Shown one piece after another: positions 21,758-47,287 of a stretch of 64,000 nucleotides of DNA; within the stretch, counting starts at the first letter, position 1; each line of letters begins with the position of its first letter. Source of the DNA: an uncultured Ruficoccus sp. (GTDB lineage: Bacteria > Verrucomicrobiota > Verrucomicrobiia > Opitutales > Cerasicoccaceae); the NCBI GenBank assembly GCA_965140785.1, contig OZ223510.1:241857-305856 (forward strand). Direction: 5' to 3'. A program made the position numbers and the translations under genes. The notes under the pieces are model-generated. The model searched no databases and was not told where the DNA came from. It saw nothing but the letters and a program-made list of their open reading frames with translations.

Positions 21758-23305
21758 TTACTCGGAGTCCGCCGGAGGCTCTCCCTGCCGGTAGAAAAGC
21801 TCGCCCAGGCTGCGCAGGTACGTGGCACTCTCACGCCAGAGCGTGTCGAGCTGCTCGGGATGATAGCGCCACTGCCAGTTGCCCGCGGCCTCGCCAGGTC
21901 TATTCATACGGGCCTCGGAACCGAGATTCATCAGGTCCTGCATGGGGATGATGGCCAGGCGTGAGACCGAGCGATAGGCGGCGCGGATGCAGTCCCACTG
22001 CGGTACCGATCCGTCCACGCTGAAATAACGACGGAAATGATCCGCAGTTTTGCCGTCAGCTGAGCGGTACCAGCCCAGTGTGGTGTCGTTGTCATGCACC
22101 CCGGGATAGACGACACTGTTAGGAATCAGGTTGTGCGGGAGGTAGAGATTGTCGCTGCCGGAGCCGAAGGCAAATTGCAGGATCGCCATGCCCGGCAGGC
22201 CGGTGGCCCGGTGCATCGCGCGTACCTCGGGTGTGATTTCGCCTAAATCCTCGGCGATGAGCTTCGCGCCGGGCATTTCTTTCTGCACGGCCTTGAAAAA
22301 GTCGAGCCCCGGCCCGGGCTTCCATTTTCCACCGCGGGCGTCCTTGGCACCGGCCGGGACGGACCAGTACGACTCGAACCCCCGGAAGTGGTCCAATCGG
22401 ATGATGTCGTAGAGCTTGAAATTCGCTTCCAGCCGTTTCAGCCACCACGCGTAGCCCTCCTCTTTGAGCTTGTCCCAGTTGAAGAGGGGATTGCCCCAAA
22501 GCTGGCCCAACGGGGAGAAATAGTCTGGCGGGACACCGGCCATTGCGGTCGGCTGGGCGTTCTTGTCGAGTTGAAACAGCTCAGGCCGCGCCCAGACATC
22601 GGCGCTGTCGAGCGCGACAAAGATCGGCACGTCGCCGATGATTTCCACGTTTTTGCCCGCCGCATAGGCGCGTACCTCCCGCCACTGATTAAAAAACAGG
22701 TACTGAGTGAACTTGACCGCCTCCATAGGTGCGCTGAGTTCTTTCTGAAGATCGCTTTGGCAAAAATCGGCGTAGGTGCGGTATTTTTTCGGCCACTCGA
22801 ACCACGGCTTGCCACCAAAGTGCGCCTTGCAGGCCATAAAAGCGGCGTAGGGCGTCAGCCAGTCGGATTCCTCTTGGGAAAATTCGACATAAGAACCGTA
22901 GCCGGGCAAACCATTCGGATCACCACCGAAGCGCTCACAGGCCATCCCCAGGATGGGCCAGAACCGCTGGTAAAGCTCGCCGTAGTCCACATGATCCTGC
23001 GGCAAGTGGCGTAGCGGCTTCAATTCCTCGTCCTTGAGCAGGCCCAAGCCGACCAGCGCATGCAAATCGATCAGATACGGATTCCCGGCAAAAGCCGAAA
23101 AGCACTGGTAGGGCGAGTCGCCATACCCAGTCGGCCCCATTGGGCACAGTTGCCAGTGCCGCATGCCCGCCGCCTCCAGAAAATCAATCAGCCGCCGGGC
23201 CTCGCGTCCCAGCTTACCGATCCCCAGTTCACCGGGCAGGGAGGTTGGGTGCAGAAGCACACCCGCGTGACGGTATTCGAGCCAGGGAAAGAGTGGTGAC
23301 GCCAT
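21758..23305 (-). CDS. malQ: 4-alpha-glucanotransferase (amylomaltase, GH77)
   Basis: LHPTSLPG, GDSPYQ, GVPPDYFS, RLDHFRGF, AEDLG and HDNDT motifs. Confidence 0.95.
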   Translation of the reverse strand: MASPLFPWLEYRHAGVLLHPTSLPGELGIGKLGREARRLIDFLEAAGMRHWQLCPMGPTGYGDSPYQCFSAFAGNPYLIDLHALVGLGLLKDEELKPLRHLPQDHVDYGELYQRFWPILGMACERFGGDPNGLPGYGSYVEFSQEESDWLTPYAAFMACKAHFGGKPWFEWPKKYRTYADFCQSDLQKELSAPMEAVKFTQYLFFNQWREVRAYAAGKNVEIIGDVPIFVALDSADVWARPELFQLDKNAQPTAMAGVPPDYFSPLGQLWGNPLFNWDKLKEEGYAWWLKRLEANFKLYDIIRLDHFRGFESYWSVPAGAKDARGGKWKPGPGLDFFKAVQKEMPGAKLIAEDLGEITPEVRAMHRATGLPGMAILQFAFGSGSDNLYLPHNLIPNSVVYPGVHDNDTTLGWYRSADGKTADHFRRYFSVDGSVPQWDCIRAAYRSVSRLAIIPMQDLMNLGSEARMNRPGEAAGNWQWRYHPEQLDTLWRESATYLRSLGELFYRQGEPPADSE

Positions 23306-23407
23306 AGAATATGCCTAAAGTACCCAGACAGCCATCGGGCCGTCAAAACGAAAGGAGCAGGGACGCTGCCAGTCAGTGAATAAATCCGAAAATGGCCGTC
23401 GCAATAA

Positions 23408-23435
23408 ATTAGACATAATGTTTATTGTGCGAAAT
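23408..23435 (-). other. dif-like XerC/XerD recombination site; left boundary of the prophage
   Basis: Minus strand reads ATTTCGCACAA-TAAACA-TTATGTCTAAT, an 11-6-11 match to dif (E. coli GGTGCGCATAA-TGTATA-TTATGTTAAAT). Confidence 0.8.
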
Positions 23436-23480
23436 TCGCTAGGTGGAGAAAAAACCGCAAGCTATCTAAGCTGTTGCGGT

Positions 23481-23645
23481 TCAACCTTTAGCACCGTGCT
23501 GTTCAAGCAGTCTGGAAATGTGGAAGCGGACCCAATTGGATTCGGTCCGGCCTTCCTTGGCAGCGACTTCCTTTAAGCGAGCTTTCATTTCCTTGGTTAC
23601 GACAGCTTGAATGACGGCGGAGTCCTTACCTCGTTCGCCCTTCAT
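23481..23645 (-). CDS. Ribbon-helix-helix (CopG/Arc-like) repressor
   Basis: 54 aa; VIQAVVTKEMKARLKEVAAKEGRTESNWVRFHI beta-alpha-alpha pattern; start set at MKGER. Confidence 0.7.
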   Translation of the reverse strand: MKGERGKDSAVIQAVVTKEMKARLKEVAAKEGRTESNWVRFHISRLLEQHGAKG

Positions 23646-23696
23646 TGATTCAGAACTCCTTATATAGTTCGTCGGGTTTGTCAATTGTATTGCAGC

Positions 23697-23746
23697 GGGA
23701 GTAATACTCTAACATATATGTCGATGTAATCGGGAGTATGACTCCC
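23697..23746. promoter_or_regulatory. Two palindromic operator-like sites GGGAGT-N3-ACTC(C/T)
   Basis: GGGAGTAATACTCT (23697-23710) and GGGAGTATGACTCCC (23732-23746) upstream of the RHH gene. Confidence 0.55.
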
Positions 23747-23791
23747 AAATACCTCCCCCACGTAGATTGATATGCAACAGGCAGAGCAAAC

Positions 23792-24292
23792 TTACAGCTT
23801 CGGCGGAATCAGGGGCAGTTTAGCCCTAATTTCCTCCGGCGTCATCCTGCCAGCGTCACCCACTATATGGACAAGCGGTATCCCGGCTGCACTGAATACG
23901 GCATCAACGAATTCGTCACGTTGTTTCCGGTCTTCTCTCTGGTGCGATGCGTCATCCAGTTCGACCGCAAAGGCAATTTCGCTCGGCCCCCGGGTGATGA
24001 CGAAATCGACGTGTTTCCTGTCAGTTCGAGCACGCATGGAACCATACGCTCTACGGTCTTGCGTACCCTTTATGCGGATCACGTCCGCCACTCGCACCTT
24101 GCTGTGTATGTGCATGTCTTCGGGCAGGCAGCGTTTGAGCAGGTGGAAAAGCACGCATTCGTGCCTCGTCAGAAGCCATTTCCGCGCCTCGGCCAGTGTC
24201 GTGTCTGCCGCGTTGCCTTCTGGTTTTCGCAAGGCTTTGAGCATGGTCGCAATGACCAATAATACCGCAAATCCAATAATGATATAGGTCAT
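23792..24292 (-). CDS. DUF2726-domain protein with N-terminal membrane anchor
   Basis: LLTRHE, KVRVADVI, KHVDFVI, AVELDDASH, RDEFVD and AGIP motifs. Confidence 0.85.
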   Translation of the reverse strand: MTYIIIGFAVLLVIATMLKALRKPEGNAADTTLAEARKWLLTRHECVLFHLLKRCLPEDMHIHSKVRVADVIRIKGTQDRRAYGSMRARTDRKHVDFVITRGPSEIAFAVELDDASHQREDRKQRDEFVDAVFSAAGIPLVHIVGDAGRMTPEEIRAKLPLIPPKL

Positions 24293-24359
24293 GTGCTCAG
24301 ACTATCCGGTATTTACCAAGCAGTAAAATCCAAAACCACTCAAACCGAAGGAACCGAAA

Positions 24360-24646
24360 TGACATCAGAAGAAACGATCCGCCTTACTGAGGCTGCACAA
24401 TCAATCGGGCTGACAAAATTCCCCGATTTGCAAATGGAAGTCTGCGACTGGGAAACTCGCGTTTCCTACAGTGAACGCAACGGCGTTGAATACGACCACC
24501 GCGGGCAAATTTGCGTTATGCTGTTTGAGCGTCTTGATGAGGCTAAAGCCCGTCGTCTTTACTTCTCGAATCGGTATCCAGATTGGCGGGTATATCGTCG
24601 TGGCAATCGGGTTGTTATCACCCTCAAGGAAAAGGCCGTGGCATGA
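24360..24646 (+). CDS. Hypothetical phage protein
   Basis: ATG after GAAGGA; stop overlaps the next ATG (ATGA). Confidence 0.6.
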
Positions 24647-25044
24647 GTACCCCAAGCGCCCTATCCGCTCTGCGGTCTGCCCGTGCTCAAGTGGATCTGA
24701 TCCACTGCGGATTACATCATTCTTTCGGTTGCATGGGCGAAGTTGCCCTGGACGCTATGCGGGATGAATTGCTCTCTTACTTAGAGGCTGAAATTTTGCT
24801 CCTCCCCGTGGAGGCGCAAGCGTCGGAACCTTCGGCGGGGGGGCGGGCAATGAGTGGTATCGAGCCCGCTCCCACACGAGGTTTACCGCGCATGTTCATG
24901 CGTTCGGAACCCCGCGACAAGACCGTCTGCTTTGTCCTGACGGAACGCGAACGCAAGCGGCTTAGATCTATGGCTAAATCCCAGGGCATCACGGTTTCCG
25001 CGCTGTGTGCCGAATGGATCACAGAAAGGCTTTCTGATGCGTGA
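24643..25044 (+). CDS. Hypothetical phage protein with C-terminal RHH-like domain
   Basis: KTVCFVLTERERKRLRSMAKSQGITVSALCAEWI; may instead start at 24850. Confidence 0.55.
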   Translation: MSTPSALSALRSARAQVDLIHCGLHHSFGCMGEVALDAMRDELLSYLEAEILLLPVEAQASEPSAGGRAMSGIEPAPTRGLPRMFMRSEPRDKTVCFVLTERERKRLRSMAKSQGITVSALCAEWITERLSDA

Positions 25045-25136
25045 CAATCGTCACCATCAAGGCGGGAGCGGGAGGTTGGCGAGCACGCCGTCAGCCTCCC
25101 GTATTCGTTTTTCACTACACACACCCACGTTGCCCC

Positions 25137-25274
25137 ATGCTTCCGTATGACGCTCAAGAATTCTTTGTAGGCGTAGGCGCTTGGCTCGCTTTTTTCGGGG
25201 CTGCGTGGTGGTCGCAAGTCGCGATCCGTTTTTTCAAACGGATGTTCGATGCAGCATCGGACATTCCTTCGTAA
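25137..25274 (+). CDS. Small TM minor virion protein (pVII/pIX-like)
   Basis: 45 aa with one hydrophobic helix, immediately upstream of the major coat gene. Confidence 0.6.
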   Translation: MLPYDAQEFFVGVGAWLAFFGAAWWSQVAIRFFKRMFDAASDIPS

Positions 25275-25302
25275 CCCAACCCAAACCGAAAGGTATCGTA
25301 TC

Positions 25303-25536
25303 ATGAACAACTGGAAAAACAAGCTCCTCGCTGGCGGTGTCGTTCTCGCCTCCGGCGTTAGCGCTCACGCTCAGACCACCGGCGTCGATTACTCGGCCTT
25401 GCAGAGTGCAGTCACCGGGGAAATCCCTGGCGTTCTGACTGCCGGTCTGGCCATCGGTGCCGCCGCCGTCGGCCTGCTCGCCGCTCCCAAGGGCGTACGC
25501 TTCATCAAGAAGATGTGGTCCGCCATCGCTGGCTAA
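25303..25536 (+). CDS. Major coat protein (pVIII-like)
   Basis: 77 aa: signal peptide ending AHA, amphipathic segment, TM helix, basic C-terminus KGVRFIKK; GAAAGG RBS. Confidence 0.85.
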   Translation: MNNWKNKLLAGGVVLASGVSAHAQTTGVDYSALQSAVTGEIPGVLTAGLAIGAAAVGLLAAPKGVRFIKKMWSAIAG

Positions 25537-25539
25537 ACC

Positions 25540-25581
25540 GGGGAGGGGGGCGAATCCCGCCTGCCCCCTACCCTTTTTTTT
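25540..25581 (+). terminator. Intrinsic terminator after the major coat gene
   Basis: G-rich/C-rich stem followed by T8, the usual position in inoviruses. Confidence 0.7.
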
Positions 25582-25584
25582 GCC

Positions 25585-25722
25585 ATGACTGACACGCAAT
25601 TACTGCAAGAAATTCTGACTCAGGCTGAGTTTGCGAACGCTCAGCTTCGGGTGATGTTTCAGGCCGAAATTGCAGCGGTCATCATCCTTATTTGGTCAAT
25701 CTTTTGGGCTCAACTTCGATGA
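25585..25722 (+). CDS. Small TM protein (45 aa), not in the ORF track
   Basis: MTDTQLLQEILTQAEFANAQLRVMFQAEIAAVIILIWSIFWAQLR; ATGA overlap with the next gene. Confidence 0.6.
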   Translation: MTDTQLLQEILTQAEFANAQLRVMFQAEIAAVIILIWSIFWAQLR

Positions 25723-26906
25723 ACAGGCATCTGTATATACTGTTCATGCTTTACGCGGCTTATGTTCAAGCCGCTGAGCCGGTAGCTTCATGGTCTGGTG
25801 TGGTCACTTCAACCACCAGTTATGGAACATACACCATGAATTGCAGCTTTGATCTTTTCGGTACAGAGGGCGCTTATTACATCGAACCGAATAGCTTCGA
25901 TGCAGTAAGAGACGACGGTTATGTCGTTCCCGGTGCCCAATTATTCTATGAGCAGATTGAGGGCGGCATTAAGTTTTACCGTGGGGGTTCTATATCTTAC
26001 TCGGTTCACGAATTATTCGCGTCACAAGACCCCGACCCCGATCCGGACCCTGACCCTGACCCCGGCGAAGAAACGGACGACGGGCTATATATGCATAATG
26101 CGGAGTCGGACGAAATCCATAACGGGACCGATGAGCCTCAGACGTACATTTACAGCATCGTGCATGAGGATGGCACGGTAGAGACCGGGGAAATCACGCT
26201 GCAGCCGGGAGAGTCCGCCACGATCAAGGGCGGTAGCCGATTAGACCCCTATTCCATGAGCGTATGGAAGAAAAACCCGGACGGAACGCTTACCAAGGTT
26301 GGGGACTATGCGTCCTCAAGTGCTGAGCACACCTCCGACACGCAACCGGGCTCAAGCACTCCCAGTGTGACGCATTCGGACGGCTCGACCACATCGGCCC
26401 TTGAACCTAATAGCAGAGGCCGCACGGATTCATCAGGGGGCAGTGCGGACACGGCAATTATCGATGATAACTCAGAGGCCCGGCACCAAGAGCAACTAGA
26501 GCAGGACCGCAAAATAGCCGAGGCCGAAAAAGCCGAGTTGCAACGCATTCGAAAAGCCATCGGTAAAGACGGGGACGGCTCCGGCGTATCTGCCGACGAT
26601 GACGAATACCCCGAAGGCCCGGACTGGAGCACGTCCAACATTGAAGCCCTCGATAACGTTGAGGGCATGATTGATAGTGTGATTGGCAAACTGCCCTCCA
26701 TCGAAGCCCTGCCGGTCGTCAGCGGTCGTAACTATACCTATGACATCAACGGCGGCGATTTCATGGATATGACGTTCAACTTTACGATCGATCTGACGCA
26801 GTACATTTCCGCCATCGAGCTAATCAGGACCTTAGAGGAAGCCCTGATCATCATCATGTTTATCATCGCTGCCATTCGCATGGTGCGGGGAGGTTTTGCC
26901 GGATGA
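25719..26906 (+). CDS. Adsorption protein (pIII-like)
   Basis: Signal peptide, (DP)6 linker at 26028-26063, Ser/Gly/Asp-rich linkers, C-terminal TM anchor. Confidence 0.8.
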   Translation: MNRHLYILFMLYAAYVQAAEPVASWSGVVTSTTSYGTYTMNCSFDLFGTEGAYYIEPNSFDAVRDDGYVVPGAQLFYEQIEGGIKFYRGGSISYSVHELFASQDPDPDPDPDPDPGEETDDGLYMHNAESDEIHNGTDEPQTYIYSIVHEDGTVETGEITLQPGESATIKGGSRLDPYSMSVWKKNPDGTLTKVGDYASSSAEHTSDTQPGSSTPSVTHSDGSTTSALEPNSRGRTDSSGGSADTAIIDDNSEARHQEQLEQDRKIAEAEKAELQRIRKAIGKDGDGSGVSADDDEYPEGPDWSTSNIEALDNVEGMIDSVIGKLPSIEALPVVSGRNYTYDINGGDFMDMTFNFTIDLTQYISAIELIRTLEEALIIIMFIIAAIRMVRGGFAG

Positions 26907-27259
26907 GCATTTTGGGCAAGATGGAAGATAGCATCGGCTGGATGCAGAAGCTTTCCAAGCCGCTCAAGCTGCTGTTTGCCCCTGTCATCGGTTTTCTGAC
27001 CGTGGCCTATGCCGTGGTAGCCTATGGGATGACGATGCTTTCACGCCTGCTTCTTTGGATCGATAGCCGGGTGGCCGATCTGGACCTTTCCGTGGGAGGG
27101 CATCACCTCGATTCGGTCGCAACGGATTTTTGGGTAACGATCAATACCTTTATCCCGGTGGACCTCGTCTTTGCCCTCGGAACAACACTGCTTGCTCTCC
27201 GGGGCGTCATGGCCGTGGTCCGCATTGTCAAGTCGTGGATTCCAACCATGTCCGGCTAG
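26903..27259 (+). CDS. Minor coat protein (pVI-like)
   Basis: 118 aa hydrophobic protein between pIII-like and pI-like genes, ending VRIVKSWIP. Confidence 0.75.
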   Translation: MSILGKMEDSIGWMQKLSKPLKLLFAPVIGFLTVAYAVVAYGMTMLSRLLLWIDSRVADLDLSVGGHHLDSVATDFWVTINTFIPVDLVFALGTTLLALRGVMAVVRIVKSWIPTMSG

Positions 27260-27261
27260 TT

Positions 27262-28449
27262 ATGAAAGACGCCATCTTCAGAGTCTTTGCCGGTACGCTC
27301 GGCAGCTACAAGTCTTATCACGGTGTTGTCGAAGCTCTCGAAACCTTGGAGCGCGGCGGTATCGTCATGACGAATATCGAGCTTCGTTGGGACCGCATAA
27401 AATACTGGTTCGAAGACGAAAAGGATTTGCTCCTGGACGATAAGCAATACGTCCACATCGACCCGGAGCAGGCTTCATCGTTCGTGAATCTGTTGGTGAA
27501 GGGCGAACGCGATAAGCCGAACAAGCTCATTATCGATGAAGCGGGCCTTCATCACAACACGATGGACAAGCGACAGATGGACCGCGTCGTGTTGGAAATG
27601 ATCGTCCACGCCCGTAAGCTTTTCATCGATACGGTTTTCATCGCTCACCACTTTACCGAGATCCTCGCGCAGATCCGCAACAAGGCTCAAAGCGTCATCT
27701 GGTTTCGGGATCTGCAAAAGATTAAATGGCTGGGGATCTCTGTGCCGGTTCCGGCCTACATCTTTTCGGAAGTCGATGCCCGCAACCCGAAGCTGAAGTA
27801 TGATTCGGCGTTCCGCTGGAAAAAGAAATTCGTCTATAAGCTCTATGTCTCCCATGACATTCAGTCGAAGGCGCTTGAGGTCATCCAGACCAAGCCTTTG
27901 ATCGAGGTTAAGCGCGTCCAGCATGCTGTAACGAAGTCGGATATCCTCCGCCGCTCGGCCAAGCGCTGGGTGCGCCGTCTGGTCTTTGGCGGGGCCATGG
28001 TCTGGGCCGGGATGCTCTTTGCCGGCCAAGCCGCGCCCGAGCCGGCCAGCGTGCCGGCGACTGATTCCAGCCAGGTTAAAACGCCTGAGCCGGTCGCCGC
28101 GGCAAAACCTGCGCAGACCGTCGAAGATCCCGCGCCCGCGCCTAAACCGGATCGCTCGATCAAGTCCGTGTCGTTCATGGGCCGCGCTCGGATGCTGGAG
28201 CCGACACGCGGGGATCAGGTCGGTTACTGCACCTTTGATTTCGTCAGCCTGCGCCTGGGCGACGGTCGCGTCATCCGTGAGACGCATCCCGACTTTGGCG
28301 GCTTTCGTCGCTCGGACAATACCGCGCTTATCGCGGGCGAGGTGTACACCTACAAGCAAGAAGATTTCCCGGCTGATCAGCTGGGCCAAACCAACCACAA
28401 AAACACAATCCAACTACTCAAAGATAATGAAACAATTAGTAATCCGTGA
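27262..28449 (+). CDS. Zot/pI morphogenesis ATPase
   Basis: GTLGSYKS Walker A, LIIDEA Walker B, HARKLFID, then a TM helix and periplasmic C-terminus. Confidence 0.88.
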   Translation: MKDAIFRVFAGTLGSYKSYHGVVEALETLERGGIVMTNIELRWDRIKYWFEDEKDLLLDDKQYVHIDPEQASSFVNLLVKGERDKPNKLIIDEAGLHHNTMDKRQMDRVVLEMIVHARKLFIDTVFIAHHFTEILAQIRNKAQSVIWFRDLQKIKWLGISVPVPAYIFSEVDARNPKLKYDSAFRWKKKFVYKLYVSHDIQSKALEVIQTKPLIEVKRVQHAVTKSDILRRSAKRWVRRLVFGGAMVWAGMLFAGQAAPEPASVPATDSSQVKTPEPVAAAKPAQTVEDPAPAPKPDRSIKSVSFMGRARMLEPTRGDQVGYCTFDFVSLRLGDGRVIRETHPDFGGFRRSDNTALIAGEVYTYKQEDFPADQLGQTNHKNTIQLLKDNETISNP

Positions 28450-28759
28450 CGAAAATATCGAGGTCCAGCATACTGAAGAATCCGTTAAGGATGGTAAGCG
28501 TTATCCGTCCTCGATCATGATCACCATCGCCGCCAGCGGCTTTGATTCGCAGATGTCGTTCTTCTTGGATATGTCGCCGGAAGCTCTCAAGCTGCTTAAT
28601 ATTGAGGAAGTCGGCACCAGGAAGCGCCACAAGGTAAAGGAAGCTATATTCGTCATCGCTCCGGGCTTCGGCAAAAGCAACTTCTCGAAGATCCGCGCCG
28701 AGCACCTTCAGAAGTTCGACGCCAAGCCCTACGTTGAAAATCCACTGGCTGCTGCGTAA
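28427..28759 (+). CDS. Putative ssDNA-binding protein (pV-like)
   Basis: 110 aa, beta-rich and basic, next to Rep; function inferred from size and position. Confidence 0.5.
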   Translation: MKQLVIRDENIEVQHTEESVKDGKRYPSSIMITIAASGFDSQMSFFLDMSPEALKLLNIEEVGTRKRHKVKEAIFVIAPGFGKSNFSKIRAEHLQKFDAKPYVENPLAAA

Positions 28760-29095
28760 TGCACCTGTACGACGGTAGCGCACTTGGGGAGGTCGGGCCT
28801 ATGGGTCCGGCCTCTCTGTCTTTCGGTGCCGACGTTGCCCCTTCCAATAGAGGCCACCAGCCGCAGGCGGGTCTCCCGTCATCCCGGCTTGACCAAGCTT
28901 TAGCTTGGTCCCCTGGCCAACTGTTTTATCCCCCACTGAAAAAGCTGTATCCAGCTTTTGCTCACCCGTGGCGGTCACGCCACGTCAAACCCCTGAAAAC
29001 GCGCCAGAGGGGCCACAGAACGCCCCATTTGGCCCTTCTCGTATCCCACATCAAAGAAAAAGCCCGCCCTGCGGTAACAGGTCGGGCCTTCACAA

Positions 29096-30040
29096 ATGGA
29101 AAATCTAGGAGAATTTTCGATGCACAGCCCTGTACATTCATCACAGAATGTCAAGTCTCGAACGAAAGAGGGGCGCAACGAATCGCTCGCCAGCGCGGCC
29201 CCGCCGCGCGGCAGCGATTCGGCCGCGCCCCTTCCTTGTCTAGAAACAAACAACTCAACCGAAAGCTACAGGCCGACCGCCCAAAAAGCCTCTAAATTCA
29301 TCGTCAATGAGGCGGCCTTAGAGCTCATTCAATCCGAAGGTATAGAGACAATCCTGTTTACGACGTTGACCTTCCCCCGCCCTGTCACCCTCAAGGAGGC
29401 ACAGAAGGCATGGAATAGTGCTGCTACCCATGCTTTACGCCCTGCCATCCCTAAAGCTCTGCGCATCCTGGAGCCTCACAAGACAAAGCAACCGCATTAC
29501 CACCTCTTGGAGGCCACCGGGAAGGATGTACGCCGGGGGTTCGACTTCGAGGCTTACCAGCGGGCAAGGTCCGTTCATTGGGCCAGCGCTGAGGGGCGCA
29601 AGGCTACCCGCGAGTATGGGGCCAGTGCCAACGATGACTTGCGCGAGTCCTGGGCATTTCACCGGCGTTTGGTGCGGTTCGGCTTTGGCCGGTCGGAGGC
29701 CGTCCCTATCTACAAAGTCGGGGAAGCCGCTGCCGACTATGCCTCTAAGTACGTGGCCAAGGAAGATCGACCCGTCGAATACAAGGGCGCTCGGCTGTTC
29801 TCGGCTATGAACTGGAAGCCGTCCACCCGGAGAGGCTTTGGGTTCGTGGACTCGGGCCGGGCTTGGCGGCTGGCGGTCGCACGGATCGCGGAGGACATGG
29901 GCTTTACCTCTGAGGCCGACTTTCGCCGGGAGTTCGGCCCCAACTGGGCTTGGGGCCTGCGCGGAACCATCTTCAGCATTGCCGAAGAAATCAAAGCCCA
30001 ATATCGCAAACGGCCCTTAGATGATGCAAAAGGAGTTTGA
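29096..30040 (+). CDS. Rolling-circle replication initiator (HUH endonuclease)
   Basis: Motif I FTTLTF, motif II PHYHLL, motif III YASKYVAK. Confidence 0.85.
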   Translation: MENLGEFSMHSPVHSSQNVKSRTKEGRNESLASAAPPRGSDSAAPLPCLETNNSTESYRPTAQKASKFIVNEAALELIQSEGIETILFTTLTFPRPVTLKEAQKAWNSAATHALRPAIPKALRILEPHKTKQPHYHLLEATGKDVRRGFDFEAYQRARSVHWASAEGRKATREYGASANDDLRESWAFHRRLVRFGFGRSEAVPIYKVGEAAADYASKYVAKEDRPVEYKGARLFSAMNWKPSTRRGFGFVDSGRAWRLAVARIAEDMGFTSEADFRREFGPNWAWGLRGTIFSIAEEIKAQYRKRPLDDAKGV

Positions 30041-30293
30041 TTTTGCCCGCGAATACACCCACGGCCTGCGCCCGGTCGTGTGGGGAGTTCGAAAGCGCCT
30101 AAAGGTCGATGAGGTTTACAAGATCGTCCCGGATCACTTGGCCGATCTCCCGGCGATCTACGTTGCCTCCCGTGTCCAGGCACGATCAATGGCCCGGTTT
30201 TACTCGGCCCTACCGGGAAAGGGGTTCGTGCTTGTCTTTAAGGGACGGAAAGTAATTCGAGAACGCAGGCCCAAGGCTATTCCATGGGACTAA
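30021..30293 (+). CDS. Hypothetical phage protein
   Basis: 90 aa ORF overlapping the Rep stop, same GC as the phage core. Confidence 0.55.
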   Translation: MMQKEFDFAREYTHGLRPVVWGVRKRLKVDEVYKIVPDHLADLPAIYVASRVQARSMARFYSALPGKGFVLVFKGRKVIRERRPKAIPWD

Positions 30294-30393
30294 GTATTGC
30301 TTGCTTGCATGTGCACATTCTACGCAATGATGCATAAGTCGTTTTGTTACTGCGTTTCCTTATTTACATGGTGAATAATAGCCTTAGACTGGC

Positions 30394-30906
30394 ATGAATA
30401 ACATGAATCGTGTAGCAAAACATCTAGAAATGCACTCGATAGGATTGAAGGATGCCGTTGATATTGATTTATTTGGGAGGAGTGCATTCAATAGGTTTTA
30501 TTATTCTGCTTACTGGACTGTTCGGGATAGCTTGTCGCCGATACGACCAAGCATCTCTAAGCAGCCACATAAAAACATGCCCATTTATTTAAAAAACTCC
30601 TTCAAGAATTATCTTTTAAAGAAATGTACAGTACTAGAATCTAAAAAAATAATAAAACCATCTGAATCTAAAAGAATTCAGTCGATAATTCGAAGTCAAT
30701 TAATGTCGATATCTAGTTCACTTGAAAACGCCTATTACGTTAGATGTATTGCAGATTATTACCTTGAAGAAAAAGCCATACTTATTGGAAATAAAATCAG
30801 GCTAGGAGGCATGTCCTCTTCAGACGTGTCATCTATTGACACCAAAGTTAAGTCAGCAACTGATACTTTAGTAAAAACATGTCATGAAAATGGACTTTAT
30901 CAATAA
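30394..30906 (+). CDS. HEPN-like protein, putative retron effector
   Basis: SAFNRFYYSAY and RCIADY (RxxADY) motifs of HEPN/UPF0332-type proteins. Confidence 0.7.
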   Translation: MNNMNRVAKHLEMHSIGLKDAVDIDLFGRSAFNRFYYSAYWTVRDSLSPIRPSISKQPHKNMPIYLKNSFKNYLLKKCTVLESKKIIKPSESKRIQSIIRSQLMSISSSLENAYYVRCIADYYLEEKAILIGNKIRLGGMSSSDVSSIDTKVKSATDTLVKTCHENGLYQ

Positions 30907-31621
30907 ACTAGATGATTTCCTTAAGGACTATGCGAATGGGTCATATGATCTAATTGACGTAATAGACTCTCCCGATGGATACATAATTACTATTTCTACG
31001 AAACTAAAAGGGAGATCGGATCGATCAAAAAGACTTGTAGTAACAAGGCTTTTGGACGAATTTAAAGATGCGTCTAAGGTTATAGTAAGGGAATCTGAAG
31101 TTGAATCTAATTTAGAAAAATTACTATTCATACCCATAAAATCTAGCATTGGGGTCGACCCAATTGGGTTAAACTTTGAAATTGAGAAAAATAAAGCCAA
31201 GATTGAATTAACAGTAAAAAATACAGGCTCAGGAAATAATGAAGACATTGAGATTAAAATTAAAGATTTAATCCATGGCGTGCTATCGCCAATAGGAATA
31301 AGCATTTCAAGCCTGTCAGTTATAGTCAAAAGCGGATCTAAAATCCCGAATCCATTGATAATCAAAAGTATTATTGTTTTGGCTCCCGTTGACTTTGAGT
31401 CTCTCTATGACTGCATAAATGAGAGATATGGAAGCGAGTATGAGTTCAACCATAAGGTGCTTAGGCGTATAATAGACGACCTAAGAAAGGAAAAGCTTGT
31501 GGTATGGTCGCCAAATGGATATCTTGCCTCTCCTAGGGCCATAGACGCGTTGTCTGGCAGTAAGAGTCGTAATTCTCTGGACATTCAAAGAGCGTTAAAT
31601 ATGAAATTTCAGCAATGGTAA
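30884..31621 (+). CDS. Retron-associated protein with probable C-terminal winged helix
   Basis: Overlaps the HEPN gene; C-terminal LRRIIDDLRKEKLVVWSPNGYLAS wHTH-like pattern. Confidence 0.6.
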   Translation: MKMDFINKLDDFLKDYANGSYDLIDVIDSPDGYIITISTKLKGRSDRSKRLVVTRLLDEFKDASKVIVRESEVESNLEKLLFIPIKSSIGVDPIGLNFEIEKNKAKIELTVKNTGSGNNEDIEIKIKDLIHGVLSPIGISISSLSVIVKSGSKIPNPLIIKSIIVLAPVDFESLYDCINERYGSEYEFNHKVLRRIIDDLRKEKLVVWSPNGYLASPRAIDALSGSKSRNSLDIQRALNMKFQQW

Positions 31622-31627
31622 ATTTCA

Positions 31628-31815
31628 CCAGGATAGGTGGTGTCGATGTCACTGCGAAAGGGTGCATCACCCTTGTTTGCAGAGGTCTGGCACAGAAGGT
31701 CCGGCATCTTACTGGATGCCGCCTCCTTCGTAGCCGGCATCCAGTAAGATGCCGACGCTCAACGGAAGTATCATATAGCTTCGCTAAATGACAATGCATG
31801 CACCACCTATCCTGG
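31628..31815 (+). ncRNA. Retron msr-msd ncRNA
   Basis: Perfect 15-bp a1/a2 inverted repeat (CCAGGATAGGTGGTG 31628-31642 / 31801-31815), msr stem-loop 31652-31682, 20-bp perfect msd hairpin 31702-31721/31735-31754. Confidence 0.85.
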
Positions 31816-32783
31816 GTATTTTTGGAAATGACCTAAAACGACTCGAAGCAAATTTCGAGTTTATTAGGACAAACGAGTTTGATCAATTAAAGCGACTATA
31901 TGGAAAGGGACTTCCTCCAGTTGTCTCTGCGCATTCTGTAGCCTTAATTTTCGGATATTCGCCTCAATTCGTTGGGTTAATGATGAAGCGTCCAAATCGC
32001 TTTTATAGAACATTTCAGATTCCAAAAGGTAAAAACAAAGTTAGAAAAATAGAAGCTCCGCGTGTATCTTTAAAAATAATTCAAAAATGGATCGGACATC
32101 ATATTGCTCGCCAAATTAAACTTCCAAGCCATGTGTGCGGTTTCGTACCAGGAAAAAGCATAATAGATGGCGCAATGGCTCATTGTGGATGTGAGTGGTT
32201 ATTTCAAACGGATATAAGCAATTTCTTCCAGAGTACACGGTTCTATGCTGTTACTAATGCTCTCAGAACAATAGGTTATTGCGAGCGTGGTTCAGTGACA
32301 TTAGCTAGGCTCTGCTGCTTAAATGACAACTTAGCGCAAGGAGCTCCAAGCAGTCCTGCCCTATCTAATCTTGTTTTCAGAAAAATAGACAGCGAGTTAA
32401 TCCAATTTTGCTCAATGCACAATTATACATACACAAGGTATGCGGATGATATCGCGGTCTCAGGAAGTGGAAAATATCCATCTGAGGTTAAAAGATCGAT
32501 CGAGAATATTATTGATTCCCATGACTACAAAATCGCTACTCTGAAAAGTAAGGTCTCTATCGCACCAGCGAGAAGGAAAGTATATGGCTTACTTGTAAAT
32601 GGTAAGGTACCACGCCTTACAAAAGGATACCGTAACAGAATCCGGGCCTTGAAACATTTATCAGAGCATGGACGCATCAAAGAGGACGATTATTCAACAA
32701 TTATGGGGCATATATCGTATGCAGAGAGTGTCGAAGCTAGGATTGCCGACATCTTATCGAAGCAAAATGAGTCGGATCGGTAA
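31788..32783 (+). CDS. Retron reverse transcriptase
   Basis: RKIEAP, GAMAH (NAxxH-like), DISNFF, LAQGAPSSP, YTRYADD and VYGL (VTG-like region Y). Confidence 0.93.
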   Translation: MTMHAPPILGIFGNDLKRLEANFEFIRTNEFDQLKRLYGKGLPPVVSAHSVALIFGYSPQFVGLMMKRPNRFYRTFQIPKGKNKVRKIEAPRVSLKIIQKWIGHHIARQIKLPSHVCGFVPGKSIIDGAMAHCGCEWLFQTDISNFFQSTRFYAVTNALRTIGYCERGSVTLARLCCLNDNLAQGAPSSPALSNLVFRKIDSELIQFCSMHNYTYTRYADDIAVSGSGKYPSEVKRSIENIIDSHDYKIATLKSKVSIAPARRKVYGLLVNGKVPRLTKGYRNRIRALKHLSEHGRIKEDDYSTIMGHISYAESVEARIADILSKQNESDR

Positions 32784-32844
32784 AACGATTGACGCATTTT
32801 CGATTTATCTCGACATTTAATGATAAGAAATTCTAATAATTCAA

Positions 32845-32942
32845 GCCGTGGACATTTGTAAATCTTGCGGGTAGAATATAGGGCTTCGCACGTGCTGCGT
32901 ATCCATTTCTGGATATTGGAAAAGCTGTTTATTGTGCGTATT
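32845..32942 (+). repeat. Cassette-end repeat copy 1: promoter + hairpin + half dif (right end of prophage)
   Basis: TGGACA 32849-N17-TAGAAT 32872; TTCGCAC 32885; TGTTTA-TTGTGCG 32926-32938. Confidence 0.8.
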
Positions 32943-32999
32943 CGTATGTCTTTATGTTGACATAGCTAACGCCAATCAGTGACTTGGGCCTACCATCTC

Positions 33000-33452
33000 A
33001 TGAAGCCTAATATCCCTACTCTAGCAAAGGTTATACTCTGGTTGTCATTGTTAGCTGGTGGCTGGAACGCGATCATTGGCGGTGTTTTTTTATCTTCCCC
33101 ACCTCAGCAGAATTCATTGCTGGATGTCGATGGGATGAAAAACGTTTTGATCCTCTCCAGCCTCCTTGGGCTATACTTCCTGATCGTATCTATTTCAGCA
33201 CTCCAGAGAAAGGAAGCAGGACGAAAGGGCTACCTCGTCGGACTGGTCCTGATGATTTTAGGCACCCTTGCTTGGTATGGCTATAATGTGGCAAGTGCAC
33301 CTAAGCCGCTTATTATTATTATTGTAGGTGCGGTTGGAATGGTCATCCCGATTGGATTGCTGGTGATCCTCTACAGGTATTTCAGCTCACAAACTGTCCG
33401 CGAAGCTTACCAGGCAGAGCCAACTACCTGCACACAGGATTACAAAAACTAA
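33000..33452 (+). CDS. Hypothetical four-TM membrane protein (cassette gene)
   Basis: About 150 aa with four hydrophobic segments; sole gene between repeat copies 1 and 2. Confidence 0.7.
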   Translation: MKPNIPTLAKVILWLSLLAGGWNAIIGGVFLSSPPQQNSLLDVDGMKNVLILSSLLGLYFLIVSISALQRKEAGRKGYLVGLVLMILGTLAWYGYNVASAPKPLIIIIVGAVGMVIPIGLLVILYRYFSSQTVREAYQAEPTTCTQDYKN

Positions 33453-33558
33453 TGCCGTGAGGCGTGGACATTCGTGGGACTGGCGAGTAGAATATAGGGT
33501 CTCGTACGTGCTGGATCGGGATTTTTGAATCTTAGCGATCCTGTTTATTGTGCGGTTG
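33421..33558 (+). repeat. Cassette-end repeat copy 2
   Basis: CAGGATTACAAAA.CTAATGCCGTGAGGCG-TGGACA 33465-N17-TAGAAT 33488; TGTTTATTGTGCG 33542-33554. Confidence 0.85.
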
Positions 33559-33622
33559 TTGGGTTTGTATAATTAAGCAACCTTGACGATTCGTACATTT
33601 CTGAGCATTCCCAATATACCTT

Positions 33623-33958
33623 ATGGCCATCAATAAATCGGATATCCATCAGCAGGCAAAACTCGCATTGGCTGCAATCAAAGCAGCGTATAACGCTGAA
33701 GATGATGATTCCGATGTGACATTATACGTCGCGCATCATCTGGCAGAGGTCGATGCTTCCTACTGGAATAATAGATTCCAAACCAATCAGCCAGCCCCCT
33801 CGCAGATACTTGACGCGCTGATTCTTTGTTCAGACATTGAAGAGATAGACAACCTTGATAGCCTGGACTTTACTCTGCCGGGCCGTGTGACCGACTATCT
33901 GCTTTGCGTTACGTTCAATGAAGACGGAGAAGTCGAGGACATCGCCATGGAAAGCTGA
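33623..33958 (+). CDS. Acidic DUF2004-like protein (cassette gene)
   Basis: C-terminus DFTLPGRVTDYLLCVTFNEDGEVEDIAMES resembles DUF2004 (recalled, not searched). Confidence 0.6.
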   Translation: MAINKSDIHQQAKLALAAIKAAYNAEDDDSDVTLYVAHHLAEVDASYWNNRFQTNQPAPSQILDALILCSDIEEIDNLDSLDFTLPGRVTDYLLCVTFNEDGEVEDIAMES

Positions 33959-33979
33959 TTTTGGCCTCGAAACGATCCG

Positions 33980-34117
33980 CAACTATCACTACGCAGGATT
34001 ACAAAATCTAATGCCGTGAGGCGTGGACATTCCCACTGCTACGTACTAAAATATAGGGTCTCGCACGTGCTGAATCAGGATTTCTGAATCCTAGCGATCC
34101 TGCTTATTGTGCGAGTT
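33980..34117 (+). repeat. Cassette-end repeat copy 3
   Basis: Same upstream block; TGGACA 34024-N17-TAAAAT 34047; CTCGCAC 34060 pairs with GTGCGAG 34109; TGCTTATTGTGCG 34101-34113. Confidence 0.85.
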
Positions 34118-34156
34118 GTCCATTCGGGAAGCTTGCAATCTTGACGATCAAATACA

Positions 34157-35525
34157 GGACCACGTAAAGATATCCATAAAATTAGGAAGCAAATAAGGAT
34201 GTTCATGATAATTAAATTATTAAATATTCAAAGTATTTTACTAAAAAAAATAGTTTTCAATAACAAAAAGAATAACTTCAAATTTAATAATAGCTCCTTT
34301 ATTATTATACACATCACAATAATTTGGTGCAGAAAAAATAGTAATAACTGCTGGAAATTCATTAGACCCATTCCATTTATACATCTTATACCCATCAATC
34401 TAAGCTTCATGTGCCCTAATTACCGAAAGCAATCCACATGCCTTTAAAAACTTATTAACAGCTTCCATTCTAATAATTAATTCATTATTTAATTAATTAA
34501 CCCATAAATAAATGAACACCCTCTAACTTCATTTGCCTTAAAGTCTTAAGGTAAATGTCCATCTTCTGATTCAATTGGATCCGACCATATTAAATCACTA
34601 AAAGCAAAAATAAATTGAATTTATAAACTAAAAAACCAAAGTAATCCAGATTTTGGTGGTTCAGTGTATCTATCGATTTTTTATAAATCTGCTAACGATC
34701 TTAAAGCTGGAGAGATCCCACCATGAATACCTATAAACTTCCCATTAATAATAGAACATAAAGGAATCATCTCAAATGATTCCATCATTATCTCATAAAT
34801 TTCTTAATCGTATTTATAGATACCTTTTTTTAAATTAAATTTTAAATGGGGTAAAAACATTCATCACGGAAGTTAAAATATGTTGTCATTTAACGACATT
34901 CATGGTTACCACGAATAAATTGTATTGTTGTTGGATAGTTTAACTTTAATTTAACTATTATTATTAAATCAGATTACCTTAAGAGAATAAAGAAGCACTA
35001 TCACTTCAATTGAAAAAGAACCTCTATCCACAAAATCTCCAAGAAATAAATACCTTTAATAAAAATATATCATGCGATTATTTTTACTTTGTATTTTCTG
35101 GTTTTCCACCAATATCCAAAATTTTAACTAAATCATAATATTATCTTCAATTGAAATTAATAAAATTAAAAGGAATAACCCATGAATATCCCCAACTACT
35201 GTTACAGGGTCATCAATTTTCAATATATTACTTTCACTCTCTATATAAAATTAAAATTCAATAAAAATTATCAATTTACTAAAAATATTATTCGTTGCTG
35301 AGACTAATTTAATCAAATCTTCCTTTTTAATTCTTCCTTCCTGACTTAAATGATCCTTAAGTAATCTCCAGTCAGGTTTTCCTTTAAAAAGCTCAGAAAA
35401 TATATTAGTAATATCCTACCTTGCAATGAAATAGGAAACATTAATGAGGATTCTAATGGCCTATGCGGTGGAGCTCTTACTTTCTTTACTTGGCGATCAT
35501 TAAAAGGATCTTTTAAAGGCTACAT
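34157..35525 (-). CDS. Calcineurin A (PP2B)-like Ser/Thr phosphatase, ciliate, 3'-truncated at the junction
   Basis: Spliced reading gives GDIHG, GDFVDRG, RGNHE, HGG, WSDP, SAPNY and [21 protein letters not shown]=Gln; short GT-AG introns. Confidence 0.9.
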
Positions 35526-35794
35526 TATTTTTATTGTAATTATTTTACTTTTATTTTTTTATCAGTTTTCTAATTTAAATTACAAGTTTATTTTATTTAA
35601 TTTTGCTCAAAAAAAAGTTTTTCTTAGAATAATAATTCTTTAGCTTTGTTAATAAAAAAACAAAAATTTATTTTTATTATTATTTATAATACTTATTTTT
35701 CCAAATTGAATTTATTTATTTCTAACAGAATAATTTATTATATAAATTCATTAAATTTTTAACAGAATAAAGTAAAATTAAATAAATTTTTTCT

Positions 35795-38336
35795 ATGCAA
35801 CACCCCTCAGTAATCATAACTTTCTTTAATTATTCATATAGATAATTTATCCTCTCTACCAAACAGACCCTACCTAAATAATGCCACCTTAGGTTTTTTT
35901 AATTATCTAAATTTTTTGAATTTATTTACAATTATTTCTTTAAGATTTCGCCATAAATATAGCCTCCATCAATATAGCCTGAATATCCTCTCTAGCCTGA
36001 ATATCCTCTCTAGCCTGAATATCCTCTATAGCCTGAATATCCTATATATTATGACTAAAAACCTTAATTTTCAGCTCCACCAATCTAATCATACCCTCCA
36101 TAAGTTTTCCGAAGGCCAGTCATTGAAGAACCATTAAGGCCAATAACACATATTTAAAATCTTCCACCTCCTGATAATTAATTTCCTCTGGATAAGGAAG
36201 CCAATTATAATTTTTAGATCTCTAAAATGAATGAAAAGATTATAGTAATAATTAATTTATAATTGAGTTAAACTTTTTTTTTTGTAAGGAATAAAAAAGA
36301 AGTTTAGCTGAATAAGAACGTTTATTACAGGATGCTTAAAATTAGGTGAGAATGGAATTTATAATTGTTTATTTTTAGATTGATTATTTGTAGCATTAAA
36401 TTGAATAATAAACTTCAGAAAATTCTAATTATAAAGAAACACTTAAGAAAATGTATATGATTTATGTATAGCAATAAAAATAGCTAGAAGTTTCCTTAAT
36501 TTTTTATTTTAAATTTAACTAAGAAATCAAAATCAACTGAAATTGATCTTTAATAATAAAATTCTTCAATGAATGAAAAGAATTGTGAATTTAATGTAAA
36601 AAGCTTCTTAAATTTATTGCTAAATTTTCTAGATGAATATTAAAAATATGATAAATGATCAAGAGCATATGGTTAATTAATATAATTAACAAAACATGAT
36701 GCATTAAGTTAAAATAATTATAATTAAAAATTAATTTTTAGAATGAAATAAAAAATATGACAACTCAATTATAAGATAAACAAATTGTATAAAAACTATT
36801 TTATTTAATTATAAACTAGGAAACTCAAGAATTAAAAAGAAAAATAAACGATCTTTTAGATTTAAAAAGAAGATTAGAAGACGAAAACTCATCATTGTAA
36901 ATTTATAATTTTAATAATAATATCAAAGACGCTTTACACTGGATAACCAACGTGCTGCCTTTGAAATAGATTGCAAGGAAAGGTAACTCTAAATTTTATT
37001 CTTAATTTTACCCAAAAAAGATAAGTAAAATTTGATTAAATAACAGCCTGCACAAGAGATGAAATGAATATCCTTAGAATGGAACGCGATGACGCATTTC
37101 ATAGGCTTGCAGGATTAGCTGATGATGTAATATATATTTAATATATTTCTTTAAAAATTAATAAACAAGAATAAATAATAATTCGAGCAAATTAAATTCT
37201 TAGAAGTTGAATTAGCAAGAGCTCGTGGACATGCAGGACCGTAACAATAATAATACTCAAATTATGCTCCTCCTCAAGTTGAAATGCCACGTTCTGCGAC
37301 TCAATCTTCAAACTAAGTAATTTTCTTTCAGTAAATAATAAATCAATAGGATTGGCTTTAATAAGAAAATTAATAGCTTAAAATGGAAAATGAAAAGCTC
37401 AAAAGACAATTAGAAGAAATGCATAAAAGTGAGCTCCTAAAGGATGATTAAATAAGATCTTTTTCTTAAAACCCCGAGAGAGCCAAAATGGTTAACTTTA
37501 CTCCTTAAGAAACAGCACTCAGTACCAATATTCCAGGAAAATTGGATGATGAATTTATGATTAATATTACGAGTAATTATTTTATAAATAATTTATATGA
37601 TTTTAGGGGGATTATTAGAGTTAGTTACATTTAAGAGAGAGGCAATAACTAATATTATATTTGAAATTTATGTTCGGTCTATTAATCATGCAAATATTAA
37701 AAAATAGTTTAATTGTTTTGTAATTATATTAATTTTGTCTTTAGAAATTCCTTAATATTGTTTATTCTTAATCTGAAAGAATTAAAAGAAAAATATTGGA
37801 AAGGGCTAGTTCTTACACTTGAAGCTTATGAAAGGCAAATTTTTTATTAGTTTTAGAGCTTTTTTATAGATTAAGAAAATTAGCTCGATAATTAACTGCA
37901 ATTCAAGGAATTCAATAAAGATATCCAAACTTTTATAATAAACTCAGTTTAGCTGTAGGGTTATTTATTAATTTATCCAGTTATTATTTAATTTAGAAAA
38001 ATATTAAATGAAAATGTTGATTTCCGAGATAATATAAATAAGTGGATTGAAGGTACTTTGGCAAATACTATTGGGAAAAAAATTCATGAAAAGCATGAAA
38101 AAAATAGAGTAAATTTAATTTTAGAGACTAAATAATTTTTTAAAGGAATTTTTATTTTTATTCAGATTACTTACAATTAAGTACAGAATTCGTTATCCTT
38201 TATAGGGAAAGTCGTTTAATATAGATTTGGATTTAGATAATTTCCTAGAAAATAAAATTTGTGCTTCTTTAAGAAAGTAAGGCTTTATTTTTAATAATAA
38301 TAATTTAGAGTGTTAAAAATGGATTTATGAGGATGA
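35795..38336 (+). CDS. Hypothetical multi-exon coiled-coil protein (boundaries approximate)
   Basis: Coding-like exons under the ciliate code separated by GT-AG introns. Confidence 0.45.
35975..36046 (+). repeat. 18-bp tandem repeat x4 encoding QPEYP(L/I)
   Basis: tagcctgaatatcctct(c/a) units; in frame with TAG=Gln. Confidence 0.85.
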
Positions 38337-46837: not shown

Positions 46838-47287
46838 ATGAAATACCTTGCTGCCTATTGTTTAGCTGCCCTTTCTGGAAAGAAAGTTGTTGGTAATGCA
46901 ACCCTCTCAATTTATATTAATTTTTGCTTAAAAGCCAAAGATGATATTGTGAAAATCTTAAAATCAGTTGGCATTGAGCCCGTTGCAGACAATATTGACC
47001 GCCTATTAAATGCTATGAAAGGAAAAGAACTCCACTAAGTTTGCTTTATTATTAGTAAAAGTTTACTAGGTAATTGCTGAAGGATTGAAAAAAGTAGGAA
47101 CTCTTGCAGGTAAAACTTTCTTTAATAAAAATTAATAGCCCCAGCCGCTGCTGCTGCCCCAGCAGGTGCAGCCCCCAAGAAGGAAGAACAAAAGAAGGCA
47201 GAGCCAAAGAAGGAAGAACCAAAGAAGGAAGAGGAAGAGGAAGTTGACTTGGGTGCAGGTGGACTCTTTGGTGATGATGACTTTTGA
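46838..47287 (+). CDS. RPLP2: 60S acidic ribosomal protein P2
   Basis: MKYLAAYCLAALSGK, Ala/Pro hinge, EEEEEEVDLGAGGLFGDDDF-TGA; three short introns. Confidence 0.93.

Follow-up and report, generated by a model that had tools for sequence, protein, structure and literature searches.

The cassette at nt 30394-32783 (+ strand) of a 64,000-nt stretch of DNA from an uncultured Ruficoccus sp. (contig OZ223510.1, positions 241,857 to 305,856; the whole stretch is the window below) is very probably an intact, early-branching type IX retron, carried as a moron of low guanine-plus-cytosine (GC) content in a variable slot of an inovirus prophage that integrates by Xer at dif, and acting through a mechanism like that of Retron-Kva2 and Retron-Sen3. 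It belongs to the type IX family, retains the catalytic residues and the conserved fold of the non-coding RNA (ncRNA), and lies in a variable slot of a prophage bounded by att sites.

The list of open reading frames (ORFs) and the analysis of the gap between them give the same four parts that an earlier note, made from this DNA alone, had described as an operon of HEPN-like ORF, winged-helix (WH) ORF, ncRNA and reverse transcriptase (RT):

30394..30906, + strand: type IX HEPN-like RNase effector (toxin), 170 aa; PADLOC HEPN_IX 1.7e-29, PDB 36ht_I 2.9e-12
30884..31621, + strand: type IX WH protein with tandem alpha-beta-beta-alpha-beta domains and a C-terminal winged helix-turn-helix (HTH), 245 aa; PADLOC HTH_IX 1e-18
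31628..31815, + strand: retron ncRNA (msr/msd), from inverted repeats, folding and a 36-locus alignment
31788..32783, + strand: retron RT of the type IX clade, 331 aa; PADLOC RT_IX 1.9e-117, Pfam RVT_1 3.2e-19, PDB 36ht_A 5.2e-71

The note's assignment to type IX agrees with the PADLOC models, with matches to a solved complex and with the RT clade described below. In PADLOC, the check that the note had proposed for the three proteins, a type IX model is the best match for each of them, and the profile coverage (HEPN 4-165 of 161 positions, WH 31-240 of 240, RT 5-317 of 317) marks the ORFs as full length. In Pfam the RT is recognized (RVT_1), while the HEPN and WH ORFs match no family. All three proteins also match the Retron-Kva2 complex (PDB 36ht), the WH by way of a family profile. 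As defined in the cited part of Mestre et al. (2020, PMC7736814), the ncRNA-RT module of type IX is preceded by two genes, one HEPN-like and, after it, a WH gene that overlaps it, and the note's equation of a HEPN plus HTH/WH pair with type IX stands. Its description of the type as merely bioinformatically defined has been overtaken by three July 2026 preprints (10.64898/2026.07.14.738597, 10.64898/2026.07.11.737809 and 10.64898/2026.07.14.737667), which, in the portions consulted, give cryo-EM structures, triggers, RNA targets and a mechanism for Retron-Kva2 (from Klebsiella variicola) and Retron-Sen3. The note had also singled out the position of the ncRNA between the effectors and the RT; this is the defining type IX order in the same survey (PMC7736814, as far as cited), and 33 of 38 related loci are arranged alike. 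The fall in GC content that it had seen is confirmed by the values of 0.339 for HEPN, 0.362 for WH, 0.404 for RT and 0.387 for the whole cargo, against 0.552 for the phage core and 0.611 for the host flank.

For the RT, RT_IX scores 389.9 bits against 248.5 bits for the next PADLOC model, RT_III-A, and among PDB structures the match to the Kva2 RT (5.2e-71) is much stronger than that to the Ec86 RT (5e-31). The YADD motif of the window RT (residues 218-221) aligns to YADD 221-224 of Kva2, and R217-Y-A-D-D221 is invariant in a 28-sequence alignment. Translation likely starts at ATG 31794, because the database gene call (P0001) has 329 aa and this ATG column is conserved in the homologues.

The putative catalytic residues of the HEPN protein are H59 and R117, the latter within an R-x-x-A-D-Y motif at 117-122. 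They align to H64 and R122 of the Kva2 HEPN, whose mutation abolished both toxicity and defence in the cited sections of the Kva2 preprint. Among the HEPN homologues H59 is kept in 32/33 and R117 in 33/33, and the ten positions conserved in at least 90% of the 33 (R29, N33, R34, Y36, Y37, H59, R117, A120, D121 and Y122) are all present in the window. The translation has no His 4-6 residues after R117, so that the Rx4-6H motif is absent.

The WH ORF overlaps that of HEPN by 23 bp, or by 17 bp if its second ATG is the start. A profile built from the window protein and 30 homologues matches the Kva2 WH (36ht_B) over the full length at 1.9e-47. The AlphaFold2 model (pLDDT 91.3, pTM 0.57) has two alpha-beta-beta-alpha-beta units followed by five helices and a beta-hairpin. 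Foldseek returned weak domain-level matches for this model in the PDB (E 4e-4, TM 0.25), including the CzcD C-terminal domain and the HTH of the Retron-Eco1 effector; the library ends on 2026-04-08 and predates 36ht, and these matches serve as domain-level likeness only. The Kva2 authors divide their WH into HB1, HB2 and HTH and draw comparisons with the same two proteins.

Between the WH and RT ORFs lies a gap of 166 nt, and the ncRNA extends from it into the 5' end of the RT gene (all elements on the + strand):

31628-31642 and 31801-31815: arms a1 and a2, a perfect 15/15 inverted repeat, a2 lying within the RT 5' end
31652-31682: stem-loop 1 (SL1)
31692-31699: conserved ACAGAAGG, invariant-looking in the alignment
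31702-31754: msd hairpin with 23-nt arms
31765-31782: stem-loop 3 (SL3), flanked by G31764 and G31783

The region 31622-31820 folds at -101.1 kcal/mol, compared with -58.1 +/- 4.3 for shuffled sequences (z = -9.9), and 0/200 shuffles were as stable. An alignment of the inter-gene regions of 36 loci gives a consensus with the a1/a2 stem, SL1, ACAGAAGG, a long hairpin and SL3 before the RT start, the same elements occurring in the same order in 35 other type IX loci. All 15/15 pairs of the long hairpin show compensatory changes. Across the whole structure, SL3 included, 93.4% of cells are paired, compared with 34-41% when the partners are slid by 1-3 columns; changes on both sides are seen in 28/36 pairs, and the covariation score was reached by 0/500 shuffles. 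The column of G31764 holds G in 34/36 loci and that of G31783 in 32/36. A scan of 22000-36000 against Rfam (E up to 1) gave no retron RNA family.

The upstream genes travel with this RT. A locus search with single proteins found one relative, and the RT_IX model matched 0/40 relatives. We collected 38 related loci with RTs 38-47% identical to that of the window, and iterated searching of the 2.6 kb that precede the RT recovered HEPN in 33/38 and WH in 36/38, always in the order HEPN, WH, gap, RT. The loci that lack one or both are mostly contigs that end just upstream (L039, L097 and L100). A maximum-likelihood tree of 85 RTs, the phylogenetic placement that the note had asked for, places the window in a clade of 38 rows (SH-aLRT 93), to which all HEPN+WH loci belong. 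The note would have given up its reading had the upstream ORFs failed to co-occur with the RT clade; HEPN and WH are both upstream in 34 of the 38 rows, and HEPN was found in 0/46 loci outside it. Hidden Markov models of HEPN and WH found neither protein at these 46 further loci with more distant retron RTs. Within the clade the window RT takes a basal position, apart from a subclade of 36 rows (support 91); this placement is provisional because the tree is a quick search. Two loci depart from the common arrangement: L028, from a Nitrosomonas metagenome-assembled genome (MAG), has a type IX-clade RT and no detectable HEPN or WH despite 5.7 kb of upstream sequence, and L047, from a Chloroflexia MAG, lacks HEPN and combines a WH-like gene with an RT that falls outside the clade. 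They may be degenerate or variant architectures.

The cassette is embedded in a prophage with the following features:

23408..23431, + strand: full dif-like site on the attL side, with XerD-type arm, 6-nt centre and XerC-type arm; adjoins a malQ-like gene
23432..30293, + strand: inovirus prophage core, from Pfam, PHROGs and same-locus homologues
23481-23684, - strand: ribbon-helix-helix repressor
23792-24292, - strand: DUF2726 protein; PF10881 2.1e-26
25249-25536, + strand: major coat protein; PF05356 (Inovirus coat protein B) 1e-5, 25.9 bits, cut-off 23.5
25692-26906, + strand: putative pIII-like protein, labelled from position only
26903-27259, + strand: putative pVI-like protein, labelled from position only
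27130-28449, + strand: Zot/pI assembly ATPase; PF05707 4.5e-12, 46.3 bits, cut-off 20.3; PHROG Zot-like 3.3e-14
29096-30040, + strand: Rep-like protein; PF23343 1.2e-4, 22.8 bits, cut-off 27.8
30021-30293, + strand: conserved 90-aa ORF
32822..32938, + strand: attP-flank repeat of ~117 nt ending in a hybrid att site (32915-32938); right prophage end

The arms of the dif-like sites are named XerC- and XerD-type by analogy with the E. coli dif. The 24-nt dif-like site at 23408-23431 recurs at 32915-32938 with 5 mismatches that are confined to the left arm, and its centre and right arm agree fully; the hybrid site thus has a degenerate XerD-type arm together with the centre and XerC-type arm of dif. 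A 26-nt form of the full site is single-copy in each of 5/5 genomes of the genus, always beside the malQ-like gene, whereas the reversed control gave 0 matches. With the coat protein and the Zot ATPase both above their Pfam cut-offs, a PHROG match to a virion structural protein (2.8e-10) in the core and dif-like sites at both ends, the earlier note's inovirus is borne out, as is its placement of the retron between the phage Rep region and the right att repeat. Judged by these signatures, the element matches a Xer/dif-integrated inovirus prophage with an att pattern of TLC type. The phage ORFs that were scanned, among which not all short ORFs were included, contain no recombinase, integrase or transposase family.

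That the retron is cargo of this prophage follows from comparison with related prophages. At the corresponding locus, two genomes of the same genus, G001 and G003, have related inoviruses whose Zot and Rep share 72-77% amino acid identity with those of the window (75-77% for the Rep-like protein), and these inoviruses also end in the ~117-nt repeat. The slot between the end of the 90-aa ORF and this repeat is 31 nt long in G003, 1.35 kb in G001 and 2.57 kb in the window, where it holds the retron. Because its length and content differ across related prophages, we regard the retron as moron cargo in a slot of variable content within the att-bounded element, and the note's proposal of a cargo of the inovirus holds: the cassette lies between the att sites, and the slot is empty or filled with other genes in the relatives. 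The slot of G001 (locus L013, 3234-4362, - strand; GC 0.41) has three small ORFs of 181, 66 and 112 aa, of which the first encodes a HepT-like HEPN protein with an R-x4-H motif (PF01934 1.5e-5, above cut-off) and the other two match no family. This HepT-like protein may be another abortive-infection or toxin-antitoxin (TA) cargo. Between the phage genes and the retron no dif-like site was found with up to 7 mismatches allowed. In an independent contig set (run X1, probably the source sample) 24838-33535 is recovered in one piece.

Several observations touch the prophage more generally. The DUF2726 protein has an N-terminal membrane helix, is encoded beside the phage repressor and shares 75% identity with its counterpart in the G001 prophage. 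Opposite the Rep-like start at 29096, the - strand at 29048-29123 gives sub-threshold matches to the Rfam antisense-RNA models sar (E 0.024) and ctRNA_pGA1 (E 0.53), and may represent an antisense regulator or else the hairpin of a terminator. At L013 (G001) and L016 (G003) two elements of 7-8 kb are stacked with the full dif-like site between them, and the site that faces malQ is a different hybrid; compared with the window, the Zot/Rep prophage of G003 has the opposite orientation relative to the att sites. This dif thus appears to serve more than one type of attP. The same study includes a second sample, run X2, in which contigs of the phage core (25553-29836) carry scattered substitutions and are 95-99% alike, while those covering 31945-32327 (RT) and 32775-33306 (RT end, att and cassette) do not differ from the window at all. 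A related phage variant with the same cargo could account for this, as could a mixture. One X2 contig joins 26225 to 31557 on opposite strands. No joint that would close the prophage into circular form occurs in X1 or X2, and the stretch 23682-24563 is not covered in X1; as these are assembled contigs, neither point bears on excision or expression. No RNA run is listed among those containing this DNA.

The likeness to Retron-Kva2 and Retron-Sen3 suggests how the window retron might act. In Kva2, according to the sections of the preprint used here, a branching G and an opposing G (G121/G139) stand at the ends of SL3, downstream of the msd, unlike in typical retrons. By analogy G31783 is likely the priming G and the template about 31693-31763. 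The RT would copy this msd part of the ncRNA, with the 2'-OH of G31783, at the base of SL3, as the probable primer, to yield a multicopy single-stranded DNA (msDNA) of ~70 nt with a 23-bp hairpin. RT-msDNA, WH and HEPN RNase dimers would then assemble into a higher-order complex in which the H59/R117 active site is occluded. HEPN would be released once an infecting lytic phage attacks the msDNA, either cutting it with an exonuclease or a PD-(D/E)XK nuclease or binding it with an HTH protein; free HEPN would cleave tRNAs and rRNAs and arrest the cell (abortive infection), and the filamentous phage would thus confer on its lysogen immunity against competing lytic phages. For the window copy we infer msDNA synthesis, the priming G, toxicity, triggers, defence phenotype and virion packaging alike, the mechanism itself coming from homology to the two characterized retrons. 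The earlier note had an RNase held in check by RT-msDNA. The RNase and its restraint are supported by homology; the antitoxin of Kva2 is RT-msDNA together with WH, not RT-msDNA alone, and WH by itself also mitigates toxicity, as stated in the cited part of the preprint. Binding of HEPN to WH is shown by the solved structure of the type IX family.

A number of points weigh against reading the cassette as an intact type IX retron of an inovirus. The window proteins are outliers in their family: the closest RTs in a set of 5.8 billion proteins are ~50% identical at most, the window WH is 14-21% identical to its 30 homologues and finds no match in a single-sequence PDB search, and a tblastn comparison of the window HEPN with one locus gave 26% identity. 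At two near-invariant positions of the HEPN C-terminus the window departs from 31/33 homologues, with V145 in place of A and I148 in place of W. Support for the clade, at 93, is under the value of 95 at which a branch is starred, and the quick tree gives the window branch only a provisional place within it. On the phage side, the Rep-like match to PF23343 lies below the Pfam cut-off and has no PHROG counterpart, the prophage core has no DNA match and Zot no protein match in a collection of deposited phages, and the true right chromosomal flank is missing from the window contig. Downstream of the RT a search of the + strand gave no terminator, and before HEPN there is only a promoter-like site with 9/12 agreement. 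Because the proteins are family outliers and HEPN has two C-terminal substitutions, the function in the window could differ in detail. The same divergence and the same substitutions could be taken to mean that the cassette is a decaying, non-functional remnant. We consider this very unlikely, as none of the three ORFs is truncated relative to its PADLOC model, the catalytic residues are intact and the ncRNA pairs are perfect or compensated.

The retron might instead be a separate insertion beside the prophage, neither replicated nor packaged with the phage genome. The sharp fall in GC from 0.55 to 0.39 and the lack of a circular phage junction in the run contigs would fit such an insertion, and among 33 other type IX genomes (a sample of 590 relatives) a Zot-family match occurs in 5, on the retron's contig in 0. 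Yet the cassette lies inside the att pair with no extra dif-like site at its left edge, the same slot varies in related prophages (empty, 1.35 kb, 2.57 kb), and the scanned ORFs include no recombinase or transposase, so that an independent insertion seems improbable to us. Slightly less improbable, though still unlikely, is that the retron serves mainly as an addiction (TA) module that stabilizes the prophage or its replicative form and is not primarily an anti-phage defence. The Kva2 HEPN is toxic on its own and is neutralized by WH or by RT-ncRNA-WH, a TA-like logic (preprint, sections cited); filamentous prophages have been reported, in the cited portion of PMC11630473, to carry TA systems that possibly aid their own replication; and the related prophage of G001 has a different HEPN gene in the same slot. 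However, the type IX systems characterized so far defend the cell against many lytic phages and react to triggers that phages encode, at least in the parts of the preprints drawn on here, and defence and addiction are not exclusive roles. A defensive type IX retron carried by the inovirus remains our preferred reading.

To the right of the prophage the attP-flank repeat recurs with two short units:

32939-33554: mini-unit 1, 616 bp; ORF for a 157-aa multi-pass membrane protein, attP-flank repeat and hybrid dif-like site
33555-34113: mini-unit 2, 559 bp; ORF for a 111-aa acidic protein, attP-flank repeat and hybrid dif-like site

The repeat is present in 3 copies in the window, in 1 each in G001 and G003, and in 0 of 18 other relatives. 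Atlas look-ups of the two mini-unit ORFs gave unnamed or DUF clusters only. Within the repeat, at 32849-32877 and 33465-33493, lies a sigma-70-like site with 10/12 agreement (TGGACA, 17 nt, TAGAAT), directed rightward across att into the next ORF. The mini-units may be Xer-mobilized single-gene cassettes or stumps of earlier prophages, and run X1 hints at a third after 34157.

Beyond this point the window changes character. The sequence from 34158 to 64000 has a GC content of 0.23 and no standard-code ORF of at least 110 aa, and genes in the ciliate code were found in it:

34228-35496, - strand: PPP phosphatase
43124-43834: mitochondrial carrier
near 46800-47080: ribosomal protein P2
62476-63572: Hsp70-like protein

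In the run contigs the bacterial contig stops matching at 34157 and continues with ~570 nt of unmatched sequence and then another copy of the att repeat, while a separate AT-rich contig begins at 34158. The depths of the bacterial and the AT-rich contig are 5.5-7.2 and 16-18 in X1, and 2-12 and 52-87 in X2. In G001 the dif region is followed by lepB-lepA, and in the window's own assembly lepB-lepA open another contig (C19). Because the contigs break there, the depths differ 2- to 10-fold and the lepB flank opens C19, we take the join at 34157/34158 to be an assembly chimera. A low-GC genomic island was considered for the AT-rich tail and rejected, given the ciliate-code eukaryotic genes, the contig break and the difference in depth. 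In the real chromosome, one or more further cassettes and after them lepB most likely follow.

A scan of IMG/VR with two RT peptide patterns found 5 loci, of which 4 are type IX-like on contigs of 33-48 kb, none of inovirus size. Deposited phages contain no close RT, the best being 33% identical and of other retron kinds. The Sen3 preprint describes type IX loci, in the part cited, as often located on (pro)phages and plasmids.

The window retron opens no new question, and its modest interest lies in its divergence, in the conserved priming geometry of SL3 and in the comparison of slots. It extends the sampled type IX diversity by an early-branching, low-GC member whose WH is so far from its homologues in sequence while fold, catalytic residues and ncRNA architecture are kept. 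Setting such divergence against conservation helps to separate what is essential from what is lineage-specific in the Kva2 and Sen3 structures, notably the G-flanked SL3 (32-34/36 loci). The slot itself, empty, with a HepT-like HEPN or with a retron, is a three-state cargo slot in dif-integrating filamentous prophages outside Vibrio. We would only tentatively go further and suggest that the retron is packaged and spread in infectious filamentous virions, that the attP slot swaps HEPN modules and that the mini-units form an integron-like dif array of Xer-mobilized cassettes, a set of proposals that we think could well be wrong. If true, an inovirus would be a vehicle moving type IX retron immunity between strains, and the slot next to the TLC-type attP would act as a hot spot for exchanging HEPN-based abortive-infection modules, a retron here and a HepT-like gene in the sister prophage.

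Defence cargo in filamentous prophages is already described: the cited portion of PMC11630473 reports filamentous and tailless prophages of Vibrionaceae with a variable, defence-rich locus and lists retrons among its systems. The present prophage shares with these the small size, the targeting of dif and a defined variable locus of the kind that is rich in defence systems there; it differs in host and phage lineage, having no DNA or Zot match in deposited phages. The cited text pools tailless and filamentous prophages, and does not specify a retron in a filamentous one or the retron type. In its mode of integration the prophage resembles the Xer-dependent integrative elements (IMEX) with a TLC-type attP, such as TLC-phi, phi-Lf and Cf1c, as presented in the relevant part of PMC4246890: no integrase was found, the dif-like site is single-copy, the XerC-type arm and centre are kept while the XerD-type arm is degenerate, and elements are stacked in tandem.

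As a retron, the cassette has the HEPN-like gene and overlapping WH upstream of ncRNA-RT that define type IX in the cited part of Mestre et al. (2020, PMC7736814). The overlap of 17-23 bp differs from the ~8 bp quoted there, and it is 8 bp in several homologues by their ORF coordinates. Compared with Kva2 and Sen3, the sequences are far apart, to the point that the window WH escapes single-sequence detection, the window RT stands at the base of the sampled clade in the quick tree, the carrier is an inovirus prophage, and the window copy is known from its sequence alone. The gene order HEPN-WH-ncRNA-RT is nevertheless the same. So are the N-terminal extension and YADD of the RT, and the ncRNA plan of SL1, long msd hairpin and G-flanked SL3 downstream of the msd. 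The HEPN proteins likewise lack Rx4-6H and keep the His and Arg that are catalytic in Kva2, and the predicted model of the WH has the Kva2 layout of two alpha-beta-beta-alpha-beta domains and an HTH. The cassette is thus a further example of known biology and no new kind of system.

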